Of a DNA stretch of 64,000 nucleotides, positions 975-58,509 are shown piece by piece; positions within the stretch are counted from its first letter, which is position 1; every line of letters begins with the position of its first letter. Origin of the DNA: Botryllus schlosseri (taxonomy: Eukaryota); assembly GCA_051294905.1 (NCBI GenBank), contig CM119371.1, positions 25,360,001 to 25,424,000 on the forward strand. Direction: 5' to 3'. The translations under genes were made by a program, and so were the position numbers. The notes beneath the pieces are model-generated. The model made no database searches. It was not told where the DNA came from and worked only from the letters and a program-made list of their open reading frames with translations.

Positions 975-1065
975 CTGCACTCTTTCCATCCGTCGCAAAA
1001 GCCTGTAGCAACAAGGCAACCCGATCCATCGTGGCATGTGAACTCTCCTTCGTAACAATTCAATC
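975..1065 (-). CDS. Exon 12 (A6): LNCYEGEFTCHDGSGCLVATGFCDGWKEC
   Basis: 91 nt, CCTCAG| ... AG|GTACTG. Confidence 0.9.
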
Positions 1066-4000
1066 CTGAGGAGATATTCAATTAAAAAAATTTCTTAGTT
1101 CAGCATTTTTGTCGGAACGATTTATTTACTAATAATAATCGAGTTTATTCGACAAAATTTGCTAGCCCCGGTAACTCATTTTATACTAGGCTTGTACCAG
1201 AAGTGATAGTAGTTGCATAAATGATTTATGAAGTTCCAAGTTCCCCTAACTGGTATACTCTCACAACTTGGCCTGCATAAATTTAGTTTATCGTTTACCT
1301 TTAGCCAACGAATCAGAATCAGTAGAATTAATGCGCTGACGCATTATCCGTTTTCAATGCGAAGTGACGCTGCCCGATAAGTCCCCACTGGCAAGTTTAT
1401 ATTTACTGTAGCTGCTTTCAAAAAAGAATTATTTTAACCTATTCATATTTACCATCCCTGCACAGTCTCTTCCTGTCGTGTTCTAGGTATCGTGGTAGAA
1501 TGCAAACTGGTGAAAGGCCTGAGGTTTTCCGTATGCATTTCGTCGCATTGTCAAATGTCGTATTGTGTGGTTCGTCCGATCCATCGCTGTCAAAAACATT
1601 GATACTGTAATATAAATTGCTTGATTACAGTTTGTCATAAATGAATTTCAACAACGCTACCCTGGAAACAACAAACCAGGGACTAAGCGCCTCCCAACCC
1701 TTGACTCTGACGGAAAGTTGTTATATACATTACACGCACAGAACAAATAAATAAGTGATATTAATGAATATTAAATTCAACGGCCGGAAACAATCATAAC
1801 GGAAATGTAAAGTCTACTGCAGGGCTAATTTGTAGGAAAAGTGCATTTGCAAAAGTTAAAAAGTTGCTTGGATCAGGTATAACTCTAATGAAATAAATTG
1901 CAGTCATACAAATTTATTATAATACTATATAACGATACACAAATTCGTGTAAAGCGGTAATAATAGGTGAACTAAGCGGGAGGTGGATTTATATATTGAT
2001 ATGTTCGTTACAGCAATGGTATGTATGGCATTATTTAATTGTTACAATTTCTTCATATTTTGGTTCAAAAGTGGTGAGAGGTAGTCGACGTCGGGAATTA
2101 TGGTTGTCACTATAGTTACGCAGATTCTAAATCCATTCATAAAAACAGTGTTTTCAATCTTTTTGGGGTCGCGCCCACACGCCTATATTTCCAATTTTTA
2201 TTATTAAGAGTAATAAAATACAAAATTTAAACTGGTGGGAAAATTATGCAACTCTGAAGTTTTTTTGACGTGATAGCGAGTCCGGGGTTTACGTTAGACT
2301 TTTGATAATAAGTACTAATATTCAATGTATGTCACAATGTTGCAAGTATTGTACCAAATTGTTTAAAATCAATCTGCATATCTACGGATCGATGATATGT
2401 GATAACAGGCTACATTTTGAACAAAATGTGACGAAATTGGCATGGAAAAGTTGGTGGCATATGACAATATGATGAAATTTGGTCGAAGTCAAGTAAGTGT
2501 TCCTAACATGAACCAGTAGTATCAAAAAGACAAAGGCAAATTTTTTACATAAATAATGTACCATCTCTTCGTTTCAGGCGTTATTGCATTCTGGAATGGT
2601 TTTTAGTTTAGAAATTTCCCTGTTTCTAAAATTCCTATTTCACATTAAAGTGGTAAGTCTGCTGAAAAGGGTTGAAAACCACTTCATTACACAGTCTCTC
2701 TGTGTCTCTCTCTCCTTCACACACACACACGTCAATTTGAACCATTTTTTACGACTAAGGTGAGGTAATATACGTATATAAACAACAGCTACTCCACGAA
2801 AAAATGCAATTTCCTATGAGGTCAAGAACGGACATAGAATGTTCTATTTCTGGTTTTCAACTTTACAGACAACAATTTAATGTATTCATGCTGCACTAAC
2901 CATATAAAACGAGTATGATATACGTCATGCATAGCTCGAGGTGCTCGAACTCAGGAGAGCAAGCCATACGAAACACTATATCACTATAACATCAGAATGA
3001 TCCTATTCCAAAACTGCGGACTCACAAACAAGAGCAGTGACCATTTCAAGTTGCTTTAACGCCATCAGATAAAACAACACATATATAGATAATTATGTTT
3101 ATGCGTGATATCACATCTCACTTGTTACACTCGACTATACAAAATATAATTGAAATCGTGTCACAAATGTTTTCGTTGGGTATAATATCGGCTTTATCTT
3201 GACGACTGCTAAAATAGGCATTGCGTCCGTGCAGTGTGATCTTATATTCCAGTATTCGACTTTATCTAATCGGTACCTGCAGTCCTTTCTTCCGTTACAG
3301 AAATTTGCAACACCAATGCATCTCCTCGAGGGGTCGCGGCATTCGAATTCCGAATCGGTACAATTAATCTCTAAATTGAACCGTTATAATTAAACCAATC
3401 CGAGTTATTAAATAATGTATTTGTAGAAAATCACCGATGACTTGCGTAAGTTTTTGCAACTTTTGTAACTTTTTTACAGCTTTCGGCAGCTTCCTAAATA
3501 GTCAGAAGTTATGTGGAAAGGTGTTTTAAGCTGTTTGAAGGATTCTTATATTGCAACTTTTCTCCATTTTTTTTATGCAACATTTTTGAAACTTTTTCGA
3601 CTTTTCATGAAACATTTTTCGATTTTTCCTGCAATCAATTTTTTCATGGAAATATTTGGCACTATATGGAAATGGATTTTTTCACTGTTTTCTAGATTTG
3701 AGGTCATTTCTGATTTGACGTATCTTCAGGCTAGACCGCCGAAAATTATATTTTCAGTGGGTTAATTTTTGCAGGATATCGATTCTTTCAAGTCGCCAAC
3801 ACTGTGTTTTGCTACAGTGCCTTGGATATGGATTGATTCGAGTATCTCCTACCCTAATAATTTCACGGTAATTGTCCATAAATGCAACATTTTAGTGCAA
3901 CTTTTGTGGAAAATAAATGCAACTTTCCACGGATTTGACTGCAACAAAAACTTGCCCTACTGATGACCGATGGGTCGCCGTGAGAACGGACGACATTCTG

Positions 4001-7000: not shown

Positions 7001-10000
7001 ACAACTAATCTAAATTCGTTTTGTATCACGCAGTGTGGTTGCACATTCAAACAAGAGAATCGCAGTGGCGCATCACATTTATGCACCCATATTAAAGATA
7101 GATGCATTGTATCTAAAAGGAGATCATCTGGGCAATGTTTGATGTCACACTTTGCGAGAAACAAAAATAATTGCTCTGTTGCAAAGTAACGTTAAGGTTC
7201 AATTACTTGAAACAGCCACATCATACATTGTGAAGGATTTTATACCATCATGCCGTACAGATAATGCTGTTGGGATAGCAGTGCTTCTGTAGAGAAGAAA
7301 CGAAAATCCAGCAATTCGAAATAGGTTATCGACGAATATGCAATGCTTGCGTTCACCTCAGAGATGTCGACTGATATCACTGACTGAAAGGAAAAGAAAA
7401 AGAGCCAGAGAACACCGGCTGTCTGATCACCTTGCATGAAGAAGCAAGCACTCGAGGTATGGAGAATGAAGATCCAATACCCTCCCCCCCCCCCAAAAAA
7501 AAATGAAGAATTGAAAGTCTGCTAATTTCAGTAAGTCAAAAGATTATTTAGCTTCTTACACCGATCGACATTGACTTTTCCTGCAATTGCCGCATCCATT
7601 GCTGACATTAAGTAACTATTTAGTACAGGGGTTATTAAACTTTTTCTTGCCGGGCCCCTTTCGAATATTATCTGGGTCTGGCGCTCCCATATTTTAAGAA
7701 CGCTAGTGAAAACAAGGGATGAAGTTCGAAGTCCGTTCAGGCTTTTCGGGTTGAGACTTCACTATTGGAAATAGCTTGAATCGCGCCAGAGCACCATTCG
7801 ACTAATTAACGCTGTGCTATATTCGCGATAAAATGAAGGGTATCATAACGACCATCGGGTACGTGCTCATATCATCTGGTCAATTAACTTCAACATTAAT
7901 TAATTCCAAACAAAGCAATCCATATTATATCACGTTATTGTAAGGTAGCGGGTCTCAACACAAAACAGTATCATCAATTATGATACGATAAAGAAATATT
8001 CCGAAGATTTAATTTAGAAACCCACAAATACAAATATAATTAATTATTGATTTTGACTAAAAACCTTTAAAGTATCTTTAATGTACAAAGGGCTCTCACT
8101 CTCGCTCTGAAAAGTGGTACAGTGCCCGTTATTCGACTTCGGCAAGCTGTTTGCTGCGGAATAAAATTAGGGTTACCATATTTTGGAATCGGGAAAGGGA
8201 GACACATTTTACCAAATCAGAAAAGTTAGTTGATCAATACTGAAAACTGCGAATTTCGCTATTTTTGCTAGAATATTTGAGGAGTTGACTAAAAACGATT
8301 AAAAAGGTCACCTCCTCCGGTCGACTTCCGATTTACGCACTTTTTACTTGAAATTAGTGGTGTTGACTAAAAAAATATCGTCACTTTCGATCAAATACCG
8401 ATCACCCACTCGAACGTATGTATCTGCTACTTAGCTTCATTTACGCTCATTTTCGGTCTAAGTGGTCCATTATCCTAGCTGTGAAATCTGTAAACGAGGA
8501 CGAATTGCCAAAATGGAGGACATTAAGGGATTTTTGGACGACATTCTCAGAAACCTGAAGAAGAAGGACAAAATCCTCCTAAAGGATGACGTGTGATAAC
8601 CCTAGATAAAATACCTAATTCGAAACATTTTGTGAAAAATAACCCGAGGTAGCGTGATGGTAGCAGTTTAACGGGGAATTGGCGTCTAAAGGTACGCGTA
8701 ATTCATTTCACATTAATTAAAATAAACCACTGCATACATGGATACATATTGCAAACGTGGCCGGCATATATTTCACGCGTAGCGCGACGTAAAGTCTCGA
8801 GATGTGACAGATTTCGTCGAATGTTAATTTGCAATGAGAACTCAGGGATATATAAAACTGTTGTTGGCCTGTGTCCCTATTGCATCCTCTACTGCGACGC
8901 CATTTTCCTTCAGCGCCCCCAATACCGCCCCTGATTCCAGCGCCCCCTCCCCATATCGCCATTTGGCGTTTTCGTCCCTTCAAAATCCAAAATGCCCCGT
9001 GGTGGGCGCTGGCGACAAGGCTGAGAAACACTGATTTAGTACATGAGGCAATACCGCTACAAAAAAGAGCAGCCATCTCCTTTTTCACCCTTGAATCAAT
9101 AGTTACTTTTAACAGTTCATGGGGATAAACCGCTTGCTAAGTCCAAGTTGGTAATATTACTTCAGATAAGCGTTGGCTTGGTCTTTGAGTTTTTAATTTC
9201 TTGTTTGTTTTGTTATCCTTTTTTTTCAATTTTCAATATACAACCTGTGAGTTCTTAATGCCATGTTACCTTTTTTGGCAACATGACCTTTACCCGCATC
9301 ACATAATTCATTGTTTATATGGTTGATTAGAAATAGGTAATCACAAATGATTATAATCGGAGTTTTTCGGATCGGATATTGCTCATTTTAAGAATCCGAC
9401 TTCGGAGTCGGATCGGAGTCGGACCGGAAAATTAAAACAGCAGGACAAGAGTTGTACCAGAGAATTTGTCGATCCGTTCCGCCCTAGAAAGTACCGCAAC
9501 GCTAACTCGCCACTCTTAGTGAGTGTCGTAAAGCAATTAGTGATTCTGATGTGTCCCTGGCTAGTCACTAGTGAATTAAAAAATAAAAATATTCGCACAA
9601 AACGTCAAATAATGCATTTTCAAATGTGCCATATATAATCTACACATATACGGATGTAAATTTGATGTACTTAATGCTAAACTACAATGTATATAATTTT
9701 CAGACCTACCTGATCTGCACAGATCATCTCGTTTATGTTGGAGTTCAGGAGGAAGGACACACAGTCTGCGATTGTTCCACGGTCTTCTACATAATGTTCT
9801 GTTATCTTCATTTAACGCATAAGGCTCGTCAGATCCATCTCTGATAAAATTATATACCAGATTCTGAATGTCAGGGCAGCTAAAACTGTATATTACCGTG
9901 GTCATGACATGCAACATGACATGAGTCACAGAGGATAGAATACGAGCCAATTTAATAAATAAATTAATAAATGAATAATCAAAAAGCATATTGTACGATC

Positions 10001-10981
10001 CCAAAATCGCTTGCTGCTCTAGCATCCGATTTTGTAATGTGCACTAAGCTATATTAATACCATGTGTGTTCCATCCTTTACCAATACGTTTTATTATTAA
10101 CTTTTTTAAATAGTACTCGGTCCTAATCCTCCGATATATTTAAGTGGTATTACACCACTTTAACATTTTTCCAACTCGTTAAATTCCAGCCAACCACTAC
10201 CTTTACTTGAAAGCTTTTATAGTCACTAGGGATGGTGTGAACCTCTGAAAGGTTCAGGTTCGTGTGAACGCGAACCTTTTTGAAAGGTTCTGTGTGAACG
10301 CGAACGTGAACCTCATGACGTCACGTGACGTCATATTGCTAATTCCAGCCCTATCTTTTAATGAAGTGATAGCCTATATTAATGTACACGATACCTAGCG
10401 AAGACTCGGGCCACCTAATGCCACAATGCTGAAGTACATATTGGCGTTTTAAACGTCGCCAAATGTATCAACTGAGACAAACAAATGATATAATAATCCC
10501 ATAAAATCAATATCTTCCGACGCTTTGCCGACAATTTCGACGAGGACTCGCCAGGGAATATAAGCTTAGGTCTTAAAAGTCCAGGCCAGACCAGACAATG
10601 CATTCGGCGTCTGATTATTGCTACATTGATATTGAGCAGAGGGTAAAACAGGTTTCTATACTTGCTACTGATAATGCCCCACAAGTTATACGGATGTAGC
10701 CAACACCTCAATCGCACGGATTTGGTTTTAATGATACAGTAAACCCGCTATATTTGTTACATCAGAAAAGGATGTCAATCTCATTTATTGGTTGGATATG
10801 CATCATTTGCTGACGACATGTAGTGTATTTCGCTCGTGATGTTGTGTGATTGCGGGTCAATATAGGCTTACCATATTTCGGAAATGAAAAAAGAGGACAC
10901 TTTTTCAGAAATTTCAGACATGCAAAACCGGAGAAGAATTCTCAAAAAACGGTAAATTTTCCCCACTTCATGAGCGGTTGA

Positions 10982-11014
<33 letters not shown>

Positions 11015-14000
11015 TTTTCTTTTCGCTCAGAGCTGAAATCACCACTTTTCCCTTCGAAATACCCGCCGGAGCTTCACTTCTGCGCTAATTTGCGGCATAT
11101 CACTCGCAATTTCCTCTAAATCTGACCTAAATTTTCAAAAAAGAGGACAAAATCTCAAAAAAGAGGACAAAAGGGCGTCCTCCGAGGACACTTTCAAAAA
11201 AGTCAAAAAAGAGGACAAATCCTCTTAAAAGAGGACGTATGGTAAGCCTAGTCAATACCACCGGACAGAGTCACTAAATATTCACAACCGGAAAGCTGGA
11301 TATTTCGAGCAAACTTTTGTAACAAAGCCAGTAAAATTTTTGAGATTGTCAAGGTGCATGGTAGTTTAGTGTTGATATTTTTAAGCTGCCAGCGCCATGC
11401 ATAGAGTGGTCCGCAGTTGAAATGCAATTAATTCGAACCAAAGATGTAATAATGGAGCGAAAAATTGTAATATATGAAAAAGGTTCACAGTGCAGAACCT
11501 ACCAAGGTTCTGTTGTGAACGTGAACCTCCAAATTTCCGAGGTTCACATACAGAACGCGAACGTGAACCTCACGTTCACACCATCCCTAATAGTCACACT
11601 GCTGTCTTCCTAATTTTAGATTGTGTCTAATAGGAGGTAATATATGAATACGTTTGCATTCATTCCCCGTGGAATTACGATGACAACTAGGCAAAGCAGA
11701 CATGTAGGACGGTAAATAAGCCTAAGTTCGATAATGACACCTGTTGTTCTCGACACCTGTCATTTTGCGTTATTCGCTAACATGCATCTTGTAATTTTTG
11801 AAACTGCAGGAAAAAAGCATTTGCTAAGTAAAAGTCGGAGCTGCCTGGTCCAAATATCCTCCTTGAAACTGTTCAGTCATAACTAATTAATATAGCAATA
11901 TCAAAGTATCCAAAGACTTTAGTTGTTTCAAGCTCATATACACACCGACTTCGTATTTTAAAGAGCGAGGAATTGTTTTATTAAGCTGCGCCTACCTGCA
12001 GTGACTAGATCCATCGCAGAATTGTGAGTGGCGAAGACAGTTTGACCCATCCCGGCATTCGAGCTGCTCATCAGAACAATTAATGTCTTGAAGGAAAGAA
12101 TTTGAGTAGATAATTCACATCGTAGCTTTAATATTCGATGGTAATGATTCAAGATTGTTGGAGGTTCTAATGAATATACTATCCTGAAACGGTTTCTGAG
12201 GATAATTTGGACTGATTAAGTTGTAACGGAATTTATTGCAAATTATGGTGGTGTGTTAGAGATTGAACTATATCTGAATTTCTCATTTTACATATAATAG
12301 CCTACATATTAGCCTACTTTAGGCCGTTGTAAATAGCCCATTGCCTACTTATTATGAATATTCAACCAATCAGGGAAGTAGCCTACTTGGGCTGTGATGG
12401 TGTGATGCACAACACACCGCAAAACCTGTAAAATGTAGCTGGGTCCGAAGATACTTTGTGCCGTTTGGTTTGAGGTAAGGCGATCAAAATGAACTGTGAA
12501 TGACCGCAAATGGCCTTTGGTCAATATCTAGCGCAACTACAAAGTCATATAAAAAGAACTCCTACTATACACGATGTAATCTACATCTTGAACAAGACTG
12601 CATGATAAATTGTTTTTGTGTTAAGAAGTGCGCGACTACACACTGAAAAGTAGGCAACATTGCCAGTATGAAGCAAATGAATGTGTCACCAGCACACCAT
12701 AAGTTAATGATATTTATTATAGCCTGCCAACAATTGTTGCAGTGGATTTATAGAAAGCAACTTCGTAAGAACAAACAGTTTTATCCGGATAATGTAAAAG
12801 TTACTCCAAAAGAATTAATGTTTCGTGAAACATTGTGTAATTTATACTGGAACTTTTCTTCCGTCACAAATTTTCGAAATATCCATTTTTAAAGTATGAA
12901 AATTTCCCATTTGTAGGTCAGTTTCCGCGTTTTATAGGCGAAAAATAATGGCCGAAATGATATTTTTCCTTTCGATTTCATAGTCAAAATTCGAATTATA
13001 TCTCTACTGTTTAGAGCTATTTTGTTTGAGTATTGCGGGCTGTTTTTTCGCCAACCTTACAATGTCATTCTCGTAGGGATGGCGTAAACCTCTGAAAGGT
13101 TCAGGTTCGCGTGAACGCGAGCCTTTTTGAAAGGTTATGTGTGAACGCGAACGTGAACCTCATGACGTCACGTGACGTCATATTGCTGATTCCAAACCTA
13201 CATTTCAGTGAAGTGATAACCTATATTAATGTACACGATACTTAACGACGACTCGGACCACGTCATGCCACAATGCTGGAGTACATACTGACGTTTTAAA
13301 CGCCGCCAAATGTATCAACTGGGGCTCTCAAATCATATAATGATCCCATAAAATCAATATCTTCCGTCGCTTTCGCCTAAAATTTCGACGAGGACGTGCA
13401 AGTGAATATAAGCTTATACGTTGATATTGGTTAGAGTGTAAAACGGGTTCCAATAATACCCCATTAACAAGTTATACAGCAGTAGCCAACACCCCAATCG
13501 CATAGATTTGGATTTTATGATACAATGAAGATATTAAATCAAGATTGACTCTGTACGTACGCCTGGTTGATTTTTTTCATCAGACTACGATATCAATTTC
13601 ATTGATTTATTGAATAAGCATCATCCGATGACTACCTGGATGTAGCGTATTTCACTGTTGATGTTGTGTGATTGCGGGTCAAGCTCACAGCAGAAAGTCG
13701 CTAAATATTCATATACGTGAAGCTGGATATTTCGAGCAAACTCTTGTTACAAAGCAAGTGAAATGTTTGAGATTGTCAACGTACATGCGCGTTTAGCGTT
13801 GAGTTTTGAAGCTGCCATCCCCATCATAGAGTGCCCCGCAGTTGAAATACAATAAATTTCAACCAAGGATGTTGTAATGACGTGAAAATTGTAATATATG
13901 AAAAAGGTTCACAGTGCAGAACCTACCAAGGTTCGTTTGTGAACCTGAACCTCTAAATTGATGAGGTTCACACACAGAACGCGAACGTGAACCTCACGTT

Positions 14001-17000
14001 CACTCCATCCCTAATATTCAATATGTAGGTAGCCTTCATAAGAGAATTAAATTGCAACATAATGCATTCGTCTCCTGTATGAGTTTAATTACTTTAGTCT
14101 ACTTCCCAATCGTTTGAATCGTTAACAGGTTATTTTCGTTTAGAAAGAAACAAGGTATGGTAATGGGTCGAAGTCTTCAATAATTAAAATACAGATTTTT
14201 GTTCATACTTACTATCACTACAAAGATCGTGTCGTATGTGTCGGAGTGAGGTGGGAAGGATACAAAGTAGTCCTGGTTGTCGATACTTGACTCTTCTACA
14301 TAAAGCTCCATTATCACCATGCGTCGCATATGGTTCATCGGATCCGTCGCTTCAAAATATTTATAGCAATTGTATTTGTTAATGCCTATCTCAGGGGTGG
14401 GCAAACTTTTGAGCTCGCGGGCCGCATTCAACATCTGAATCCATTCGCGGGCCGCACTATATAAAACGCAATATTCGTATTTGATTATATAGTTGAGCAC
14501 ATGGTGATAATATATATGCTTATTCAAAACAAAACGAACACTGCTCTGATGATATCGTACACGCGACAGAAACTGTGGTGAGATTTCATAGACTGGACGA
14601 CCTCAATAACCAGTTTGTCTCAACCGGTGGTTCTCAACCTTTTTTAAAACACGCTTACCTTTATGATAATGTAAAAATTTCGCGCCCCCTGATCGCCATA
14701 TGACAAAATACAACCGGTATGCTAGCAACCCCAACAGATTGCTTGATGGCATGGAAGGTTAATACTGTTGATGAGAAAATTCAAAAATATGAAATTCGAT
14801 GAGAAACACGCGTGAATTGTAGGTAAATCGCGATAATTCGGTGGGAAACACGCCTGAATTGTACATAAACCGCTTCGTTGCGCCCCCCTTTAGATGCTTT
14901 CATCCCCTCAGCCCACCCCCATCCACTGGTCTGAGAGCCACTGGTCTAAACTATGGAGATGAAAGTCGGTTGTCCCGATTTTTAGAACAGGCTTGAATTT
15001 TAAATCCGTGAGTAGCGATCTCTGTTCATAGATTTACTATGGTTCAGTTCCAGGACACATAATGCTGACAGCACCATAACAATTTTAGCTTCAAACACGC
15101 TTCTACTATGTGTAAATAAAATATAAATAGGCTAATTCTACGCATACAGAGAACGAATCTACCTACGACACACGCGAATCGTTTTTTATAAGCATCATCA
15201 CTGAAATAATTAAAACTGGAGTGGCCAATCTGAAATCACATTCGTGATCCGAATTATGTCAAATTATCTCGTTCAGGATTTCTGTAATGTTTAGCAGTTG
15301 AAACCTTTCAAACTGCGTGGGCTGCCGCGCCAGAATTTAAACATAAAGACTAATATAAGAAATATTGAGCATACTTTTCAAGACACGCCCCTTCACACTT
15401 ATGATGATGAAATATTTCGCACCCCCCTGTCGTCATATCCCAAAACGCAACCAGGATGCTAGCAAACCTATCGGATAGTTTGATGGAATGGAAGGTTATA
15501 CGACTGTGGATGAGAGATTTTTAAATAGGAAATTCAGATTAAATACAGAGCAATAATTATGAATGGTATATTATTCGCGAAAAATTTTTCAGTTGAAATC
15601 AGCTTCGCCCCCCCCCCCCTGCCCCCCCCTTCAGGAGGTTTCACGCCCACTGCCTTGGACATATCATGGTGAATTGTACTAAGAGAAAGTTTAATCAAAT
15701 CCCTGCATTAATTCGATTTTTAGTACGCATTTTATCAATATTTTTCACCAGTTTCTTTACACTCTCGCGGGCCGCACAGAACGGTGTTGCGGGCCGCATG
15801 AGGCCCGCGGGCCGTAGTTTGCCCACCCCTGGCCTATCTGATAAGCAGAAGATTGTGTGTTAACTTTAGTCACCTGCTGCAGGTCCTCAGGGACGAATGC
15901 GGGTCTTTTGTCCAAATACTCTAACTCGAGCGTCAGGCGCTTGTATACTATATTGATTACAAAATTCCTGCAAATTTACTCATGTCCCATTTACTCATTA
16001 GCCAACACAGCCAAATAAGGTTGGTTTGTGAGCGCGAACCTCTAAATTATCAAGGTTTCGTATACCGAACACGAGTGTGAACCAAACGTTCGTAATATCC
16101 GCAATGAATATTCGCAATCAAATACAAGAATAATTTCAAGACATTAACTAATATGGTCTCGCTTTCGGTCATCACGCAAGTCACCAATACCTGCAATCTT
16201 TATTTCCGTCGCAAAATAGTTTAGGATGAAGACACCTCGATCCGTCGCTGCAGTGGAGCTCGTCCTTAACGCAGTGCGCACCTATGGAAATATTTATTGT
16301 AAAAATTCACTTCATTGTGCTAAGTATGTGTAGAATTAACGAGATCTGAATAATAGCACTTCTGGTTGAAATTACCTACGTTTTTCAATACGATTGTAGG
16401 TTAATATATCCACTAGTTAAGCAATAATGATAACTAGCTTGCAGTAAAATTTGATCAAACCTCTTCATGCGCATTGCGCACTATCTTTACCTATGATAGT
16501 GACACACAATGACAAAATAGTTGTAAACAATTCACAAGTCAATCCCACATTATGGTTTTGACTCGAGTCAAGTCTGGTCCTCTTCAATCCCCCACCGAGC
16601 CAAGTGCGAGTCCTAGTCAGGGTGCAGAGTGTCGAGTCCGAGTCATAATATTGGGACTCGGGTTCTAGTACAAACATCGTGTTCACTGTTGGGTCCCGAG
16701 TTAACATCATGTTCATCGCACGATTTTGCATTTATGCTTTAAGAAATGTCGAACCTGATGGATCGCATCAATACTTGAATGATTTTTCCTACTCCCAACA
16801 CCTTTATTGAAATAGATAAGAGACAGTTGTTGGTAAAGTACCCGCAGTGAAAGACGTAATATCAAGATTGTGGTAACTTTACTTTTTTTTCGAAGTTGCC
16901 TTGATCGTATGATATGCTCAAAGTAGCCAAGGAGGCTACTCAAGCAGAAGTAGACGTAGCAACCCAGAATTATACCCAAGTACAATTGGAACTATGAATT

Positions 17001-26000: not shown

Positions 26001-29000
26001 GCATTTCGTGGAATATGGCTGGATAAACGACTTTGCGCCACTCTCCTCAGACTTCAAACAGGATATGATAATGGCCTTTGTGACATTGGTTATGTTTAGG
26101 AAATGGTAGATGGGGTGTTTCGTTAAGTGCAATAGACCATGCGTACACGGAACGTTTAAAAGAGCAGCTTAGCAGGTGTGAATCTGTTCTACATTAGACA
26201 ACTAAGTGTTGGAGGTTTATCAAAGCTCCTCCTCGCCTCGTGAGCGTTGTCTTATAAAAACCCTAGAAGTGGGCCGTGCTACAAGTCGGCAGTAACGGAA
26301 TATATATGAAAAATATCGGCCTGTCGTAAATGACCACCGTAGTCGACAAACACCATGAATACCATAAAACAAGCAAACAAACCAGACAACTAGTCGGACA
26401 GCCCGACGGTACATCTGGTTGTTTTTCAAGATAAACTATATGAGGCACTACATTGTGATGGTTAGGCGGGCATTTGAGGCAAACGATGTTTTAAAACACG
26501 TTGTTTAAAACATGATTTGAACAGTGTTTTGAACAAACGCTTTTCAAAAAGAAACATTTTTCCAAACGCTGTATAATTATACCATATTAATGTAAATACT
26601 ATTAAAAAACATGTAGCATGAGCCTACGGACGACTTGGAGCCAATATAGTCGACGTATACGATATGGAGTTGCTGGAACCCTGGAGATCGTCGTCGATTC
26701 GACAGTATTAGCAGGTAGGTATAAGTAATTGGTACGAAATGGTTCTTCTGATGATGATGACCACCGACCGTAAAAATGCTGCATAATGATGTACTCCTGG
26801 TTGAAGATATTATGGTCTGTTTATGACAGTGGTCGGAAGCCTTTTTCGTCAAATGAGCAATGTTTACCCTATATATTCAAGTGTCAATGCAAATTTACTG
26901 TGACGTCACAAATAAAGATTCGTCACGTCATGGCTAGAAAAAGATGTTTTGAACAAGGCCACGTTTCAAACATGTTTGTTTTGATTGATTTTTGTTTTAA
27001 ATGCAACCCTAGTAATGGTGCGAAATGACCTCTAAATCGGTGCACCATTTCCTTCCTAATCAAGCAACAACAACTTATCAAGAGTTTCAACTTCCCATGT
27101 CTCGTTGCAGGACAGTGGTACCATGATAGTAAATTCAACACTAAGTCAGATAAACGACGAACGTGTTGAACGTTTGAAGATAGTTGCATCACATGACGCA
27201 CATCTCCGTGCGATGTTTGCGTTTGCAGCTAACTTTTCAATAATCTATCGCTCACAAAACCACAGCTATTCAGGTGTTTACACCAGCATCTGTTAAACAT
27301 AGTTTTCCTCGATTTTTAGGTGAAATTTATAAGTTGATTGCCTAGTATTGTCAAGTAGTTGTGAGTTGAATATAAAATTAAATTTTCAAGACAATCACTG
27401 TATATTTGGCCACCAATTGAAGAATGTTACAATTTAGTCCTCGGTATTGACATTTTCATAATTCATAATACGTTTCCCACTTTGGAACTGAAAATTATTC
27501 ATGCAAAACATATAGTCAATTTTCGCGAAGTTCTATTCAGTGATCTTAAATTTACTAGATAGGAAAATATCTGATTAGAAATGTACCGTTTGCTTGAGTA
27601 AACCATGTAATTTAGTAGTTCGCCAGGAATGATGGTTACCTGCAATCTTTCTCTCCGTCGCAAAAGTATGAAACTGGTATACAGCCAGATCCATCGCGGC
27701 ATTCGAAATCTTCTTCGGCGCATTTCGTTCCTAGCGAAATATTGAACAGATAAATTAAATCGTATATTTTGTTTCTACATGTAATGGACGGCCAGAATCC
27801 TTTCACTACGGACTCTTGGGATATCATTAAACCTATATGTTAATAGCAACCGTTTACTTCCATACTAGCGTAAGTGCTTTAAAAAAAAATTAACTTTCTG
27901 GTACTAAGCTGGTCATCAGGGTAGTCCAAAATTTGAGAAATCTCAAAAATGATGGGTAGCAATGTCTCATTCTACAGATTATTGATAAAAAAAATCGGCA
28001 ATGAGCCTGGAACAAGCTCACAGGAAAGTTGTTAAGATTTGTCGCAAAGCGTTTGTAAGTAGCTACCGACGAGTGGGCGTGCCAGCGACCATAGAACGGC
28101 GACAAGACTAGTAATAACGAAATCACCGCTCTTGATTGGCGAATCGGCTATGCTTCAATGATCACGACGGTGGTGGCTTGCTGATTAGTCGTTAAAGGAG
28201 TCTTATAACGGCAATGATTCTGTAAGCGCATTGTAGGTTGGTTGCCAAATAATGGTATAGGATTAACTCAGGACATCTGGAGTTACGAAATACATGATGA
28301 TGAACAAACAACAGCTGCTTCAAACAAACTTGAAGCATGACTGGCCTCAGGGTTGGATTATCCGGATAACGGTTAACCGGTTAACCTCCGGTTTTTTATT
28401 ACCCGATATCCGGATATAAATCTGCCGGTTAACCGGATAAAATAGCATCGTTTAGGAAGCTTCAATAAGTCGTATAATCAGTGTTGCGCGCGGCCAATTA
28501 GCGAGAAGCGTGTCGCCAATTAGTCAGTGCAGTGTGTAACGCGACGCAATCTCCCGCTGAGAAGATCGCCAGATTAGGTCATTGATTGCCGCGAATTCGG
28601 CTATCGTTGCTGGCCTGATTTTTCGAGTCTCCAAGATGCCCATAGTTCCGCTGGCAGAATCACATCTGATCACGATATTATCACTGGCCTACACAATCGC
28701 ATCTGCAATAGGCATGATACGAACGATAGATATCGTCGCTGGCGTAACCAGCGAGTCTAGGCCCCGGCATGCGTTGGCTCGTATCTCTTGGTGGCTTGGA
28801 GACTATATGCCGGTAAGACTATTTTGATCAGCGATTGTGATTAATGAGTGACATCGCGAAACCGAATGACATCGAATGTTCGCATTACGCAAACATGTTC
28901 GTGCGCGCAAGCGTAATTTATTTCCGCTGATACTAAATTCGAAAAAAAATCCAAACCCCCTCGTTTTATTTAAAACACCCCCCCCCCCCCCGTTATTTTT

Positions 29001-32000: not shown

Positions 32001-35000
32001 TTACAAATTACTATAATTTCGCTATTTCCCTTTGGTTTCTGTCAGATCTGAGGAATGAAGCCCAAACGTAGGGACGTAATCCAGATGGCTGGGAGCCACA
32101 TGCTCACGGTAGAGATTACTCGTGAAATTCAGTTTGCACCATAAAAACTTTGAGTGGACCATATATCACGTCGAAATGATTAGATGTTTGTTCATAGTTA
32201 CCAGCTTTACACAAAGTATTTAGGCGTTTTTGTGACTCAGGCGGGAGGATACAAAGTGCGTGTGGATAACGTGATCTTCTGCACATCCTGCCATCGTTAT
32301 AATCATCTTCGGAAGCATATTGCTCGTCGGATCCGTCTCTGACAAAAAAAAAGCTTTGGGTTATATTTCATATTCTGACGCACACGGTTGATCGCGTTGG
32401 GTCGTCGCAACGAAACGGACAATTCTTCTCTATCTGGCATCAGTAAACATTATGATTCGTATATTAAGTCTCATTTCGCGTTAGCTCTGTCCCAAAGTTT
32501 CTATCAAACTGATCTTCTTTCTTCAATATGCTTTAGGCTCACCAACAAATGCAACATATTCAACGTATTATACTCTGCTATGTTCTGAAAAAATGATCAT
32601 CAGGGGTGGTCATGAATGACTTATTTATACTCTTTGAAGTACTCAAGTAGATTTTGCTAGCTTGCACCGTGCTTGAATACATTGTTTTATTTAAAGCTAC
32701 TAACTGTTCACACTTCGGATTATGAAGCGGAAAATTGTTTCGTGATAAGTTTGCATCACTATAATCACTATAATCCCCATAAGAAATAGCAGTCATAAGA
32801 AACGCTGATTATATTTCATCGGCGAACTATGTCTCTCGATACCTTTTTCCTACCGCATTAGCCTTGAGCCTCGTTTGCTCGTATCATATGCTTCAATGCA
32901 AAACATGGGCACCATAATGCTGAGCAAACTAACGGCAACAATATTTATGGCAGAAATGATTAAACTTCGTTAATGGATCGGACCGCCATGTTAATTACGA
33001 TGTAGTTGTAGAAATCATAGTCACTTAATTTATTTTCAATTGCCACTATATAAATAGTCATTTGAATGTTGATTTTCTTTTGACGGCCATGCAGACGTTA
33101 GTATTTATTGGATTAACATCTGGATTAGAGTGTAAGGAAGAATTTTAATCCTGCAAAACTATTTTTAAATAATTTTTCTTACCGAACATTTATATTTCAC
33201 TCGATTCCAATATATGTATAAATGGAATAGATACGTGTGCGAATGCTCCGGGCATCAGACTTGTACAAACTACTGGATTTTCAAAAACCACGACTAGAAC
33301 TATAGCTAGAACTACTCAATTTTTAAAACTCGCAACTATAACTAGAACTATAGAACTACCTGATTTTCAAATCCCGCAACTAGGTTGATGATAGTTTAGT
33401 TTGTCTAAGTCTGCTGTCTGAGTAGCTTTACTGGTAGTCGTACAGATTGCAACATACATATGGTATCAACATTGCACACATTTGATAGACTTTTGTTTTG
33501 TGACTCACTGAAAATTAAGATTTCTCCGAAGGCTTGTAGATTAGCGTAGGACAAACCAGGGTATTTTACGGCCCGCGGGTCGAATTCAGATCATACGTGG
33601 GAGGTCCGGAGAAATTTTGAAGAAAAATAAAATATGTCCCAAAAAAACCTACTTCATGTTGATTTACGAAATAATTTGGATTGAAGCTGGTCATTAGGGC
33701 AGTCCAAAATTTGAGAAATCTCAAAAATTATGGGTAACAATGTCTCATTCTATAGATTATTGATGAAAAAAACAGCACTGAGCCTGGAATAAGCTCACAG
33801 GAAAGTCGTTAAGATTTGTCGCAAAGCGTTTGAAAGTAGCTACCGACGAGTGGGCGTGCCAGCGACCATAGAACGGCGACAAGACTAGTAATAACGAAAT
33901 CACGGCTCTTGATTGGCTAATCGGCTATGCTTCAATGATCAAGACGGTAATGGCTTGCTGATTAGTTGTTAAAAAAAGTCTGCTAATGGCGATGATTCTG
34001 TAAGCGCATTGTAGGTTGGTTGGTTAATAATGATATAGAATTAATTCAGGACATCTTGAGTTACGAAATACATGATGATAAACAAACAACAGCTGCTTCA
34101 CACAAACTTAAAGCATTACTGGCTTATTGTAAAGGAAACCACCGTAGCCTACATGCCTGTATAGACCAAGGGAAAGCGCAAAACCCGGGGAGAAATATTG
34201 CAAAGGCGCTTGTGGCGAACAAATTTCTCGTTTCAGAAGGGATGTATTATCATTGAATACGAAGCTTAACAATGACACTACTTTGTGTGATCTTATTAGG
34301 CTCCAGCCGTGGTATATAATTGAACTCTTGAATGCTCTAAGGATTTGCAGAATAAGCCGTTTATGCTGGGGACGTATTTGCTGCCTATCATTTTCAGAAA
34401 ATAGTTGCCCATCTACGGGTTGCCAAGTCATTGAAAACTTAGAACCGTACAGAACTTGATTTCATTCTCCTTGTAAACACATTAATTTTGATTTTCTCGG
34501 AAATATCAGACATTGAATCGACATTTCAATGCAACTAGGTTTCGAGATTGAAATGGGAGAGATTTCGACCCCAAAAAGTCACCCGTCGGCTACGCCACTG
34601 TTAGCAGTGATGACTCTGAGCGACCAACAGCTGCACATAGTTTACAAACATCATTCAACGGAACACCGGCATCTCAATTCGCCAAAAACCACGACACATG
34701 TTTTCTAGTTGTTCGGAAACTAATATTTTTTTCTAATGTGCAACTAGAACTAGAACTACTGAATTTTCAAAACCCGCAACTACGACTAGAACTAGAACTA
34801 ATGAAAAAATTGATAGTTAGTTGACCATCAACTAACTAAATGTTTAGTTTGTTCAAGTCAACCGGGCATACCTTTGCGAACTGGAATAACCTTCTCATAT
34901 TCATAACTAAAAAATATGAATTACTTATTCACGACGTCAGTCGAAAGAAAGGGAAAAACATTCGGTTTTCACAACAAAACAACTCGCATTATAAGATTGA

Positions 35001-37632
35001 TAAAAATCATTAGCTTTATAGGCCCTAATACACACATACTCTCTGCAGTATATACCTTAGTAGCACTGTGTTGTATGTCTATAGCAGTGGTTCCCAACCT
35101 GTGGTACGCGTACCACTAGTGGTACGCGAAGGTCTTTTAGGTGGTACGCGAGTAGATTTTGTTTTTTGTTCGACCGAATAGAGTTATTAGTAAAGATCTT
35201 TTTTTTTTCAACCTCTTGAATGAATTTCATCGATATTATTAGTAGTTTCAGATATTAGTCTCAAATATTTATCAATTGTCAGCCCATGTTATCAAATTAA
35301 CAGGCGTAGCTGATGGAGCGGGTGTCTTCAAAAATCTTAGACATAAAATAAGTGATGATGCACTTTGTTGCATGATCTTATATTTCTCGACCTCCCATTA
35401 TAGGATTGTCGGTACAGTAAAAATTTATTAGAATCACCCCAACGTACCAGAAGTACCTTCATTCGTGAGACGCACTCGATTCTAACTTGATATTTATTTA
35501 TGGCGTAACTTATGTAGGTGGTACGCGGGCACTGCATAAAACCTCGAAATGGTACGTGGGTGGGAAAAGGTTGGGAACCACTGGCCTATAGTATACCAAT
35601 TCTTTATAAATATTTAAAAGGTCACACGGCTTCTTATTCACCAGTGGAACAATCATGTGAACTCAATTGAAGGCTTTAGGCCAGGGATGTCGAACTCATC
35701 TCAGGTCGCGGGCCGTATTCAAATTGCCGGCATGACCAGTCAAATGCTTCCAAAATGTTACCTCCAACTCCAAATCCCTATTTTCACTATATTATCACGC
35801 CCCCGTATACATAATAATACACACGGACCATGGGGACTCTATAGCAGCATCTTTATTCGCAAACAATGGAATTGGCAAAAATGTGATTGCCGGACGGCTG
35901 AATACAATCGTTAACCGCTAGAAAAAATACGGGCTTTAACGACGATACAAGTTGGCATATTTTTATTCCCAGTTGTTTTAGTCGTGATGAGGCGTTTGTC
36001 CTGCGTATGCGTTGTGAGAAATATACGAGAGATTTAACCGTATAGACTTGGGCTTGGACTTGGACTTGGACTTGGACTTGGACTTGGACTTGATTCATTA
36101 TGGAAAATCACCATTCGGTTTTCTCTGCGAGCCGGTGACTTTTGAGTCAGATGAAGCACACCAGTGCGACCGCATAGATTTGAATTGGGTCTTTATTCTT
36201 TGTGTAGCTATTATATTATTCATGTCACCTGTATATAACGGTTTATCATTAGCATTCTCGATTCACTGAATACCAACATTTAGGCTCAATGAGCACCTTT
36301 TTGCCTTCTCGCATTTAGGTGTATCAATGTCAGTGACTGTATCTAATTGTGACTAAGATGGAACCGCAACACTGATCTCGGAAGTATGCGTTTTGGCCTA
36401 TTCATACATTCGACATATGCCGAATACGGGGATTATTGTTTTAATAAACTCCAAATCTCAACATTTGTTAGGAATGTGCCGGATAACAAAAGCAGTTGTC
36501 CATCCACTCGAAACTCGAAATTGCTTCGCGTGTCGGATGAAATCGTCTGTCGCGCCTAATGTTTGACACCCCTGCTCTAAGCGGCTCATCACCCGTGCTA
36601 AGCGCTATGATTCGCGTACTTACATCCGAATTAAGCATTAGACTACTTGTTCTTATTCGAGCCCCTTTTCCACCATCAACGAGAACTATGTTTTCGAAAC
36701 TTTCCCTCAACGTCGCTATATCCCGAAACAACGAATTGTCGCACCGCAGCATCCAAACTTGTAATGCAAGCTAAGCACGTCGGTGGATAAGATATTTCTA
36801 TCACATATCTGATGAACCTATATTATTGCAACAAAGTACAATTGAATAGGTATGGTGAATAAAATTATTTTGATTGCGATTTTAAAAATTCATTCACACA
36901 TATATATATTCACGCAGATTTCCATATCATCCATAATGTAATGATGTGATGAGTAGAGTTATGCTCTGATGCTTGATTCGGAATCGGAACCGGCAAGTAA
37001 TCTAATTTGCACAACCCTATGTCACCTGCAATGTCGCACTCCGTCGCAGTACTTATTGATGCGAATGCATTTACTTTCGTCTCTGCATTCGAATTCACGT
37101 TCCCCACATCTTCGACCTGAAATCATATTGTGTGAATATCAATAGCTCCGAATATCGAAAAATCATATTCTAATCTCGAGTATTTGAAAAGCTTCTTGGA
37201 GGTACAGAACTTCAATATACAATTGAATAGTATATTCATATTGAAATGAACCCGAATATTTTCGGCTGACACTCGTCAGGGGTAATCGTCAGCAACTAGT
37301 TTAGAATTGAAAAGAACATTGTGTATCAACAATCGTATCACAAATCTCGAATAACAGACCAAAATTGTGACAATTTGTAAGCTCCGTTTTCCGCGCGGCC
37401 TTGTCAGGGGCTGCCGTATCAGAGAATATGTTTGAAGCAAACAGACAAAATGTAAATGCACGTACACATTTATAGGAAGGATTAGGGCAACTATATATAA
37501 AGTAAAAGATAATCACGCAATGTTGGATTTCTAGAACTATAGTGAGCGATTATCACACATGCAATAACACTTACCTTGTACGCTTGCAACAGCTATGATT
37601 AAGGCGAAGTCCAAAAAATACATCGACGACAT
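975..37632 (-). CDS. Multi-exon secreted/cell-surface protein with tandem extended LDL-receptor class A-like repeats (5' part; presumably continues beyond the left edge)
   Basis: 12 exons with GT-AG boundaries splice into one stop-free frame of about 428 codons: 37632-37575, 37116-37026, 32338-32202, 27730-27640, 21799-21660, 16281-16191, 14349-14213, 12086-11996, 9840-9710, 3370-3277, 1586-1453, 1065-975. Signal peptide, then repeated C..C..C..CDG...C-x-DGSDE motifs. Confidence 0.9.
1453..1586 (-). CDS. Exon 11 (B5): DGSDEPHNTTFDNATKCIRKTSGLSPVCILPRYLEHDRKRLCRD
   Basis: 134 nt, TTTTTGACAG| ... G|GTAAAT. Confidence 0.9.
2146..2684. mobile_element. Degenerate hAT (Charlie-like) MITE
   Basis: Imperfect TIRs CAGTGTTTTCAATCTTTT / AAAAGGGTTGAAAACCACT; TSD not convincing. 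Confidence 0.45.
3277..3370 (-). CDS. Exon 10 (A5): INCTDSEFECRDPSRRCIGVANFCNGRKDC
   Basis: 94 nt, TTTAG| ... AG|GTACCG. Confidence 0.9.
5490..5742 (-). pseudogene. Chapaev3-type (CMC) transposase C-terminal relic
   Basis: Translates as NFVDDHKAINYKQLV...LGKNMITKV.FLFSHVDIFPDHL..*QGQRFHQDIK....RYQGR*...MADHCWNL. This resembles the EQGERFHQDI..ME.RYQGRW...M.DYCW motif as I recall it; two in-frame stops. Confidence 0.75.
6380..6508 (-). mobile_element. tRNA-derived SINE fragment
   Basis: Shares TAGCACGGCCCAC..CTAG, CTAGATAA(A)CCT and GAGTCGACCT..ACTCGAA blocks with the copy at 43757-44015. Confidence 0.6.
6514..9486. mobile_element. Non-autonomous hAT-like element with nested MITEs
   Basis: TIRs TAGGGCGGA... 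/ ...TCCGCCCTA and subterminal CGGATC/CGGAGT repeats at both ends; TSD decayed. Confidence 0.6.
8168..8604. mobile_element. hAT MITE (GAGGACA-repeat family)
   Basis: TIRs TAGGGTTACCA / TGATAACCCTA; TSD AATAAAAT/GATAAAAT. Confidence 0.8.
9710..9840 (-). CDS. Exon 9 (B4): DGSDEPYALNEDNRTLCRRPWNNRRLCVLPPELQHKRDDLCRS
   Basis: 131 nt, TTTTATCAG| ... G|GTAGGT. Lies within ORF 9576..10025. Confidence 0.9.
10227..11589. mobile_element. hAT MITE, TAGGGATGG-GTGAAC family, copy 1
   Basis: TIRs TAGGGATGGTGTGAAC, perfect 8-bp TSD ATAGTCAC, GTGAAC/GTTCAC subterminal repeats. Confidence 0.92.
10863..11250. mobile_element. Nested hAT MITE (GAGGACA family) inside copy 1
   Basis: TIRs TAGGCTTACCATA / TATGGTAAGCCTA, flanking duplication GTCAATA; absent from the sister copy at 13074. 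Confidence 0.85.
11996..12086 (-). CDS. Exon 8 (A4): INCSDEQLECRDGSNCLRHSQFCDGSSHC
   Basis: 91 nt, CCTTCAAG| ... AG|GTAGGC. Confidence 0.9.
13074..14013. mobile_element. hAT MITE, TAGGGATGG-GTGAAC family, copy 2
   Basis: Same TIRs and colinear internal sequence as 10227-11589; TSD not preserved. Confidence 0.88.
14213..14349 (-). CDS. Exon 7 (B3): DGSDEPYATHGDNGALCRRVKYRQPGLLCILPTSLRHIRHDLCSD
   Basis: 137 nt, TTTTGAAG| ... A|GTAAGT. Confidence 0.9.
14392..15831. mobile_element. Non-autonomous hAT-Charlie-like element
   Basis: TIRs CAGGGGTGGGCAAAC, perfect TSD GCCTATCT, CGCGGGCCGC subterminal repeats. Confidence 0.9.
14625..14943. mobile_element. Nested hAT MITE
   Basis: TIRs C(A/G)GTGG(T/C)TCTCA; TSD GTCTCAAC/GTCTAAAC; related fragment at about 15370-15650. 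Confidence 0.7.
16191..16281 (-). CDS. Exon 6 (A3): AHCVKDELHCSDGSRCLHPKLFCDGNKDC
   Basis: 91 nt, CCATAG| ... AG|GTATTG. Confidence 0.9.
17125..17400. repeat. GC-rich tandem repeat, unit up to about 59 bp, core TAAACGGCGGACCGAGCGGAACTGCGGAC
   Basis: About six degenerate TAAAC(G/A)GC(G/A)GA cores; two near-identical 59-bp units. Confidence 0.8.
17556..17775. repeat. 52-bp minisatellite (about 4 units)
   Basis: Unit CCCAGACATGATGTCC.GG.TGCAACACAGTACCAACACACTCCAAACATAC recurs at 17615, 17667 and 17719. Confidence 0.85.
18241..18302 (+). pseudogene. Isolated 5' fragment of 18S rRNA gene
   Basis: ATATGCTTGTCTCAAAGATTAAGCCATGC is the conserved start region of eukaryotic 18S rRNA. It is followed by AGTAC...GTGAAAC at about the expected spacing; no further rDNA. 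Confidence 0.85.
18334..20832 (-). mobile_element. ISL2EU-like (PIF/Harbinger-related) DNA transposon relic with THAP and YqaJ-exonuclease remnants
   Basis: About 55-bp TIRs ACGGCCGTAAACCAAACTTTAC.CTGATTGGTCGA, flanked by CTAT / ATAG (AT or TATA duplication). THAP start at 19645 (YCCVYKCS..FHSFP..W..RVRRQDFKP..ICS). Frameshifted YqaJ motifs EQRGCAEW, LRLTSSNFGRV, GYLGASHD and GVLEV at about 18540-18890. Confidence 0.75.
19771..20725. mobile_element. hAT MITE with GACTCGAGTC/CAAGT subterminal arrays, nested in the ISL2EU-like element
   Basis: TIRs CAGTGTTGGGAT, perfect TSD ATACATCG; related fragments near 4216 and 16555. Confidence 0.92.
21660..21799 (-). CDS. Exon 5 (B2): DGSDEPQYATFDDSNETLCRGRTKGEASLCILPRYLDDERTKLCRN
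   Basis: 140 nt, TTTTGACAG| ... A|GTAAAT. Confidence 0.9.
22694..23580. mobile_element. hAT-Charlie-like MITE
   Basis: TIRs CAGTGGTTC, TSD AACTTGAG/AACTAGAG, CGGACCCC subterminal repeats. Confidence 0.88.
24287..24800 (+). mobile_element. Truncated copy of the CAGGACCGTAAC hAT MITE family
   Basis: Colinear with the first about 500 bp of 55729-57303. Confidence 0.7.
24975..25415. mobile_element. hAT-like MITE (TAGGGTTGCATTT family)
   Basis: TIRs TAGGGTTGCATTT / AAATGCATCCCTA; related right ends at about 27011 and 41935. Confidence 0.65.
26130..26390 (+). mobile_element. tRNA-derived SINE copy (degenerate head)
   Basis: GGTTTATC..GCTCCTCCTCGCC, CTAGAAGTGGGCCGTGCTA and AAAAATATCGGCCTG blocks shared with 39401-39650 and 43757-44015. 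Confidence 0.65.
27640..27730 (-). CDS. Exon 4 (A2): TKCAEEDFECRDGSGCIPVSYFCDGEKDC
   Basis: 91 nt, CTAG| ... AG|GTAACC. Visible at the end of ORF 27636..27827. Confidence 0.92.
28348..29512 (+). mobile_element. Deleted hAT element with dimerisation-domain remnant
   Basis: TSD ACTGGCCT/ACTGGCAT; ATCCGGAT/AACCGGTT subterminal repeats; VEAERAFNTCGLFVTKLRSQLQDATIDAVYFIR at about 29165-29265. Confidence 0.85.
29884..30551. mobile_element. Near-palindromic MITE (about 300-bp arms)
   Basis: TIRs TAGGG(G/A)TA(T/C)TCAAAAAT extend almost to the centre; flanking duplication TGACCAG. Confidence 0.88.
32202..32338 (-). CDS. Exon 3 (B1): DGSDEQYASEDDYNDGRMCRRSRYPHALCILPPESQKRLNTLCKA
   Basis: 137 nt, polypyrimidine-GTCAG| ... 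G|GTAACT, phase 2 to 1. Confidence 0.9.
33256..34861. mobile_element. hAT MITE with ACTAGA subterminal repeats, carrying a duplicated segment
   Basis: TIRs (CA/TT)GACTTG.ACAAACTA, perfect TSD CCGGGCAT. Internal 33684-34375 duplicates the left end of the 27917 element. Confidence 0.85.
35085..35583. mobile_element. hAT-Charlie-like MITE
   Basis: TIRs CAGTGGTTCCCAACCT, TSD GTCTATAG/GCCTATAG, GGTACGCG repeats. Confidence 0.92.
35682..36574. mobile_element. hAT-Charlie-like MITE containing a (TTGGAC)n microsatellite
   Basis: TIRs CAGGG(A/G)TGTC(G/A)AAC, TSD CTTTAGGC/CTCTAAGC; related right end at about 53820-53914. Confidence 0.75.
37026..37116 (-). CDS. Exon 2 (A1): RRCGEREFECRDESKCIRINKYCDGVRHC
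   Basis: 91 nt, TTTCAG| ... AG|GTGACA, LDLa Cys pattern, phase 1 to 2. Confidence 0.9.
37575..37632 (-). CDS. Exon 1: signal peptide MSSMYFLDFALIIAVASVQ(G)
   Basis: ATG at 37632, hydrophobic core, small residues near the likely cleavage site, strong donor AAG|GTAAGT. Phase 1 matches exon 2. Confidence 0.8.
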
Positions 37633-37654
37633 CACTGTGTAAAACGAACGCTAG

Positions 37655-57303: not shown

Positions 57304-57500
57304 CCCGCAATCACACAACATCAAGAGCGAAATACGCCACAGGTCGTCAGCGAATGGTGCTTATTCAACCAATCCATAAAATTCAAATAAAGAAGACATC
57401 GTTGTCTACTCTAAAAAATCTACCAGACGTATGGGGTCCATCTTCATTTGATATGTTTGTTGTATCATAAAAACGAAATCCATGTGATCAGGGTAATGGC

Positions 57501-58471: not shown

Positions 58472-58509
58472 GTAATGGCTACTCCTGTATAACTTGTATC
58501 GTTAGCAAG

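Follow-up and report, generated by a model that had tools for sequence, protein, structure and literature searches.

Structure of the gene

The 64,000-nt stretch of Botryllus schlosseri DNA analysed here, referred to below as the window, carries the front end of a real gene whose 12 exons all lie on the minus strand, from position 37632 down to 975 (Table 1). A six-frame motif scan located six A segments that resemble LDLa and five B segments that contain DGSDE, alternating and all on that strand; the 11 introns of the model (387–6339 nt) are GT-AG without exception, and the spliced product runs for 428 aa with no stop. The initial annotation had proposed this arrangement, 12 exons that splice into a signal peptide and 5.5 repeats, and its exon model stands. 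The A exons (91–94 nt) run from phase 1 to phase 2 and the B exons (131–140 nt) from phase 2 back to phase 1, giving repeats of 76, 77, 76, 74 and 76 aa and then a sixth half-repeat. The segment encoded by exon 1 reaches a hydropathy peak of 2.57 over 11 residues, and three relatives introduced below (P0001, P0002 and P0004) begin alike. The pyrimidine-rich acceptor ahead of the ATG points either to a UTR exon further upstream or to a trans-splice (spliced-leader) site; spliced-leader acceptors occur in ascidians.

Table 1. Exons and splice-site features of the gene
Feature	Position	Strand	Evidence
3' splice acceptor, pyrimidine-rich, ends 2 nt before ATG	37635..37650	-	sequence
Exon 1: ATG, hydrophobic stretch resembling a signal peptide, donor in phase 1	37575..37632	-	splice model
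Exon A1: LDLa Cys1-Cys5	37026..37116	-	PF00057 E 3.5e-05
Exon B1: DGSDE, linker, Cys6-8 tail	32202..32338	-	no Pfam match
Exon A2: LDLa Cys1-Cys5	27640..27730	-	PF00057 E 1e-08
Exon B2: DGSDE, linker, Cys6-8 tail	21660..21799	-	splice model; no Pfam match
Exon A3: LDLa Cys1-Cys5	16191..16281	-	PF00057 E 7.2e-06
Exon B3: DGSDE, linker, Cys6-8 tail	14213..14349	-	splice model; no Pfam match
Exon A4: LDLa Cys1-Cys5	11996..12086	-	PF00057 E 0.011, under cut-off
Exon B4: DGSDE, linker, Cys6-8 tail	9710..9840	-	splice model; no Pfam match
Exon A5: LDLa Cys1-Cys5	3277..3370	-	PF00057 E 0.0002, under cut-off
Exon B5: DGSDE, linker, Cys6-8 tail	1453..1586	-	splice model; no Pfam match
Exon A6: LDLa Cys1-Cys5; gene continues past left window edge	975..1065	-	PF00057 E 0.00047, under cut-off
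Donor motif, first 11 nt of intron after B5, GAA at +9..+11	1442..1452	-	
Further B-exon donor motifs with GAA at +9..+11	32191-32201, 21649-21659, 14202-14212, 9699-9709	-	

The A-type pattern occurs six times and the B-type pattern five times in the window, and neither arose in 200 Markov-3 resamples. Identity between repeats at codon positions 1, 2 and 3 is 0.60, 0.69 and 0.46 for the A exons and 0.60, 0.69 and 0.37 for the B exons, and this order, with position 2 above position 1 above position 3, is the pattern of coding DNA under selection. In the B exons, substitutions have saturated the 4-fold sites (16/44 identical), yet all 45 cysteines of the model have been kept. The window holds no additional A- or B-like exons (the best remaining domain hits have E 0.067 and 0.57) and no match to a B6 exon, a 7TM or the membrane-near block of the relatives. 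An arrangement as separate small genes, with one signal peptide per repeat, was considered and rejected: exon 1 has no second copy in the window, only 387 nt of intron precede A6, and the relatives are continuous arrays.

An eight-cysteine repeat with an LDLa core

Every complete repeat packs eight cysteines into 74–77 aa (5 of 5), and Pfam covers only its first part, which bears out the proposal of a distinct repeated unit. All six A exons match PF00057 from position 1 or 2 to position 28 of 37, three of them passing the cut-off on the exon alone. None of the five B exons matches any Pfam family, in agreement with the expectation that their tail would correspond to no described domain. A B-exon profile run against solved structures likewise found no relative by sequence (one chance row, E 8.2), and when the B-exon alignment was used in a word-based protein search, a weak test, none of 187 candidates matched.

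DGSDE is present in 5 of 5 repeats, an aspartate follows Cys4 in 5 of 6 cores, and another precedes Cys5 in 3 of 6; the acidic Ca2+ motif of canonical LDLa modules, D-x-x-x-D-C-x-D-x-S-D-E, is therefore recognizable in the sequence. A sixth cysteine a few residues after DE is absent, the next cysteine lying 17–19 residues past Cys5 in 5 of 5 repeats. The distance between C[IV]LP and the closing LC, originally given as 10 or 11 residues, occurs in none of the five; the gap is 9 in all of them (Cys7-x13-Cys8). The repeat would work like an LDLa module yet is no plain LDLa. Two further positions set its core apart: an aromatic residue directly precedes Cys4 in 6/6 window cores and 31/32 family cores versus 21/300 canonical modules, and tryptophan two positions before Cys4 is found in 0/6 window cores versus 86/300. 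Tryptophan before Cys4 acts on ligand lysines in many canonical modules, and its absence from all six cores suggests that the ligand surface is probably different. The cores in the window have an acidic character (0 to -8), their tails a basic one (0 to +4).

Relatives and the receptor family

A profile built from the five B exons, as the initial annotation had advised, matched 2 of 1.84 billion representative sequences (E 7.8e-09 and 3.7e-07), and both proteins consist of tandem eight-cysteine units. These unnamed proteins, P0001 (794 aa) and P0002 (715 aa), are each encoded by one ORF, with a signal peptide followed by units spaced C-6-C-5-C-6-C-5-C-(17-22)-C-(mostly 6-11)-C-13-C, which matches the window; their sources are single short contigs of 3100 and 2316 nt. 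An alignment search started from the pair returned 39 hits, headed by two Styela clava proteins, below which came Clavelina and Phallusia proteins with LDLa + 7tm_1; broadening the alignment brought in Ciona and unnamed members as well (among the best 120 of 535 hits). The best named matches suggest that the gene probably comes from a styelid-like ascidian. Both Styela proteins are uncharacterised models. P0003 (XP_077966781.1, LOC120342772) is composed of tandem eight-cysteine units and has no TM. Its 14 full repeats are arranged as a higher-order array of period 4, which breaks off within the 15th repeat in unrelated sequence; the model is apparently truncated or frameshifted. P0004 (XP_039271686.2, LOC120346100) is a complete LDLa + 7TM receptor that lacks LRRs and comprises four eight-cysteine units, one ten-cysteine unit, a conserved CF-x-C...CDG...DLSDEC-x-C block and the 7TM, the last matching glycoprotein-hormone and relaxin receptors (RXFP1 7tmw E 2.6e-14). 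It is the only complete GPCR among the four relatives with tandem eight-cysteine units. By Pfam, five of five complete relatives (P0004, P0010, P0021, P0022 and P0024) combine PF00057 with PF00001 and carry no LRR family.

Altogether 153 proteins were fetched and their family membership was labelled by us; 118 of them are other LDLa proteins. The top five in a blastp comparison with the window model all have tandem eight-cysteine units and score 164–212 bits, versus at most 124 for all other fetched proteins. The long-linker C...C-x-L-P unit, a marker of our own making rather than one taken from the published family description (PMC2396169), is present in 5/5 window repeats and is otherwise confined to the labelled family set. 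Arrays of tandem eight-cysteine units were seen only in the window, in Styela and in the two unnamed proteins. Intron content differs widely across the family: P0052 (L001 8561-11554) is encoded by a single unbroken, intronless genomic ORF of 998 codons, versus two introns per repeat in the window. Apart from this intronless relative and distant GPCRs, a metagenome scan gave no intron-bearing eight-cysteine locus, and the ESM Atlas returned only LDLa clusters, under 0.9. Another LDLa + 7tm_1 protein, P0078, is assigned to a Planctomycetota MAG, where its 2469-nt contig is likely a piece of animal DNA.

The gene most likely encodes an orphan G-protein-coupled receptor with a predicted 7TM, and it likely belongs to the ascidian LDLRR-GPCR family, with which the relatives plainly connect it. 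LDLa repeats directly after a signal peptide, by which the family is recognized, are present in the window model. LRRs are absent from the 428 aa and from the nearest relatives, and neither EGF nor YWTD repeats occur in the window part or in P0001–P0004. The earlier suggestion of a lineage-specific receptor ectodomain is most likely right; the LDLa-LRR-GPCR offered as its example gives way to the LRR-less LDLRR-GPCR type of the relatives. Less plausibly, the gene may have shed its 7TM to become a secreted or single-pass LDLa-array protein that carries ligand or acts as a decoy, and reading through a B-exon donor to a stop close by might yield short secreted forms as well; we regard this as unlikely. 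P0001 would fit such a protein, since its nine eight-cysteine units lead into a single hydrophobic 19-mer and the family block is missing, as would P0003 with no TM. Both P0001 and P0002 sit on short contigs, however, so that their ends may be artefacts; P0002, which ends before any TM, does carry the GPCR-family block seen in P0004; and a 7TM is present in all complete relatives that combine a long-linker unit with a well-defined C-terminus. As for read-through forms, reading on past any of the five B donors gives G/S-x-x-E and then a stop within 4–44 codons, but the G-K-Y with which they begin is the plain reading of a consensus donor. An orphan receptor is the reading retained below.

A graded series of cysteine loss

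Laid out by their cysteines, the units of the family take three forms. The ten-cysteine form has Cys1–5 and DGSDE, no Cys6, and then a second LDLa from its second cysteine (Cys2') onward, complete with C-x-L-P, CDG and DE-C. The nine-cysteine form, found in Ciona, Clavelina, Phallusia and unnamed proteins, is the same unit minus Cys4', and the eight-cysteine form of the window, Styela, P0001 and P0002 has lost Cys4', Cys6' and the second acidic motif. A Cys3'-to-Cys5' spacing of 13 persists in 12/13 ten-cysteine units, 12/12 nine-cysteine units, 27/32 other eight-cysteine units and 5/5 window tails; the corresponding spacing, Cys3 to Cys5, is 12 in 297/300 canonical modules. Profile comparisons join the forms step by step, not end to end: canonical with ten-cysteine at 97%, ten- with nine-cysteine at 97%, nine- with eight-cysteine at 84%, and other eight-cysteine units with those of the window at 94.5%. 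Window tails compared alone match nine-cysteine tails (48%) and ten-cysteine tails (30%) only weakly, and canonical LDLa (2%) not at all. Because the series is graded and the spacing of 13 is kept throughout, Cys6, Cys7 and Cys8 are probably Cys2', Cys3' and Cys5' of a second, eroded LDLa, the canonical Cys6 having been lost.

Canonical LDLa modules are bonded 1-3, 2-5 and 4-6. Cys4' and Cys6' would accordingly have been lost as a pair, leaving 2'-5' as bond 6-8, while Cys4 and Cys3', both left partnerless, form a natural pair 4-7. We therefore infer for the eight-cysteine unit the bonds 1-3, 2-5 and 6-8 together with a cross-module bond 4-7; in the nine-cysteine form one cysteine would be left over to pair outside the unit.

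An AlphaFold model of the relative P0002, computed from 32 alignment rows, has a mean pLDDT of 76.8 and a pTM of 0.31, so that the placing between repeats is unsure. Each of its eight-cysteine repeats folds as an LDLa core, two strands that carry Cys6 and Cys7, and a helix towards Cys8. When solved single LDLa modules were aligned to the model with VIA, five ended on the C-x-L strand: 8yw0_E (19..80, rmsd 1.9 over 40 aligned residues, Z 4.7, C78 on the strand), 1ajj (488..548, rmsd 1.3 over 37 aligned residues, Z 4.2, C549 on the strand), and 8xi5, 9rbq and 5oyl, whose alignments reach 551, where C549 sits. Two others (1j8e and 5oy9) end at 539, beside the Cys6-type C538, and 13 further rows end just past DE. 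The alignments lean weakly towards Cys7 taking the place of the canonical Cys6, every Z being below 6 and one of the five supporting rows lying on an eight-cysteine repeat. Foldseek and a wide VIA search, with the tail submitted as part of a longer model, gave LDLa-bearing chains and no clear match to the tail.

The initial annotation had taken the sixth cysteine for a canonical Cys6 moved out by 11–13 residues, still bonded to Cys4, with Cys7 and Cys8 closing a new loop. This wiring is the simplest on the window alone and suits 1j8e and 5oy9, which stop next to C538, but it is probably wrong and we consider it improbable. In the ten-cysteine relatives a full Cys3'–Cys6' half with CDG and DE follows the position, which is consequently Cys2'; moreover, the constant spacing of 13 and the five solved modules that end on the Cys7 strand also speak for a remnant second LDLa, with its predicted 4-7 bond.

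Transcript evidence and intronic repeats

RNA mapping, recommended at the outset and named there as a way to refute the model, was negative, yielding neither junction nor exon reads. It was shallow, covering 3–13% of each of four runs (three under one species label, one under a second) mapped on window positions 1–20000: depth was zero in the bins that cover A6, B5 and most of A5, and none of the joints listed equals a predicted junction. Reads elsewhere in 1–20000 look repeat-derived, 65–100% of them running on unlike the window. The A–B and B–A joins are supported independently of RNA, since relatives carry both parts in one unbroken ORF with the same cysteine spacing. The exons without reads, together with the repeat-rich introns, might indicate a recently silenced copy, that is, a pseudogene. 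We hold this to be quite improbable, as 12/12 exons are open, 11/11 introns are canonical, the 45 cysteines have outlasted saturation at the 4-fold sites, and the RNA null comes from those same small fractions of the runs.

Repeats are plentiful in and around the gene. Four copies of one 270–700 nt element, 84–92% identical and in both orientations (27906-28345, 29513-29882, 31099-31796 and 33684-34378), sit in the introns flanking exon B1, where inverted copies could affect B1 splicing. A dispersed family (10225-11596, 13073-14013 and 55483-60764) recurs both in the introns and upstream of the gene, and takes most of the RNA depth. At 18241-18302 (+), RNA reads fit partly over some 60 nt that have no Rfam match at gathering score; their loose ends presumably resemble the 5' end of 18S rRNA, and the segment looks like a decayed rDNA scrap in an intron. 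A THAP-domain ORF at 49475-49954 (-) (E 6e-12) adjoins a Cys-rich ORF without a Pfam match at 48528-49019 (-), the two probably forming a DNA transposon. Remnants of an RNase H at 54754-55344 (+) (E 0.0019) and of a Pao retrotransposon peptidase at 61193-61970 (-) (E 4.3e-12) were also found.

Origin of the array and a model for its function

The five window repeats form one group in a tree (92/74, under the starred level), in which one of the nine-cysteine units matched the pattern, so that this type is unplaced, and P0003 has undergone a recent four-repeat higher-order duplication. Together, these observations indicate that arrays were amplified gene by gene, separately. A further trace may lie in the donors. 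GAA stands at +9..+11 after 5/5 B donors, although synonymous sites are saturated; read through the donor, it encodes a Glu six places after Cys8, where 12/13 ten-cysteine units have the Glu of DE. The triplet may be a fossil of a lost exon end, a splicing signal, or a product of shared ancestry.

The explanation that we consider probable is that the gene encodes the ectodomain of an LDLRR-GPCR, with a relaxin-receptor-like 7TM and no LRRs, built of one-and-a-half LDLa units that are stapled by bond 4-7 and amplified in tandem into a multivalent, Ca2+-dependent collector. Each repeat would begin with a core of Cys1–5 and DGSDE, minus its Cys6, that is predicted to bind Ca2+, and would continue with a remnant second LDLa that has kept Cys2', Cys3' and Cys5' and lost Cys1', Cys4', Cys6' and the acidic Ca2+ motif. 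The pairs 1-3, 2-5 and 2'-5' (6-8) would retain their usual partners, and the widowed Cys4 would bond to Cys3' (Cys7, in C-I/V-L-P), fixing the tail, a beta-hairpin plus helix, on the core. A two-exon, phase-1-to-phase-1 cassette would have been amplified in tandem within the gene. The resulting chain would most likely collect ligands in a multivalent, Ca2+-dependent manner, a large protein or lipoprotein being a speculative candidate, and the signal would pass through the conserved membrane-near LDLa block to the 7TM.

It is enticing to go further, in a scenario that as a whole we regard as doubtful. A new disulfide-stapled domain would have been born of two LDLa modules through stepwise loss of cysteine pairs, the last step being recruitment of a splice donor in the Gly codon of the second D-G-S-D-E, which left the Glu codon intronic. 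Styelid-like ascidians would then have multiplied the unit separately in each gene, producing variable arrays with which orphan blood-cell GPCRs, and perhaps secreted decoys made by read-through, could sense large protein ligands with no need of LRRs.

The unit has been missed by annotation: Pfam sees its first half, and databases label the proteins 'uncharacterized' or 'LRP-like'. It can serve to mark an orphan family of chordate GPCRs, and the ten-, nine- and eight-cysteine forms offer a clear graded picture of two old domains giving rise to a new disulfide domain. With a length of 75 aa the unit is easily expressed, making the predicted cross-module bond and Ca2+ binding directly testable.

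Comparison with known systems

A GRL101/RXFP type (LDLa, LRRs and 7TM) or an LRP-type endocytic receptor is very improbable: LDLa arrays head both and such proteins appear among the search matches, but they score at most 124 bits against the window model, and the long-linker eight- or ten-cysteine unit is found in 0/118 other LDLa proteins, which hold 1440 canonical modules. According to Kamesh, Aradhyam and Manoj (2008, PMC2396169), RXFP1/RXFP2 and snail GRL101 combine LDLa with a 7TM related to that of the ascidian family. They have LRRs, which the ascidian family lacks, and their LDLa modules are canonical.

Canonical LDLa modules (PF00057; LDLR, VLDLR, LRP2) share with the repeat the Cys1–5 spacing of 6-5-6-5, CDG and DGSDE, and the model cores of the relative superpose on solved modules with an rmsd of 1.2–1.9 Å over 35–40 residues. 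Unlike them, the repeat lacks a cysteine just past DE, extends to 74–77 aa, has three extra cysteines and is interrupted by an intron inside the module. P0003 and P0004 have the same unit spacing and are 31–32% identical to the window model over 421–432 aligned columns; the window repeats, in contrast, cluster with one another and not with the repeats of these two proteins.

The closest system is the ascidian LDLRR-GPCR family itself, in print since 2008 (PMC2396169, the only paper on it found in a search that covered mainly openly accessible journals). Its members likewise have a signal peptide followed by tandem LDLa-like repeats, and the relatives with the window's unit carry a relaxin-receptor-like 7TM and no LRRs. 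For Ciona, PMC2396169 reports ESTs from blood cells. The one-and-a-half LDLa repeat and its putative derivation were not found described within the same literature coverage. Ciona and Clavelina relatives differ in carrying one or two nine- or ten-cysteine units, whereas the window has a tandem array of the eight-cysteine form.
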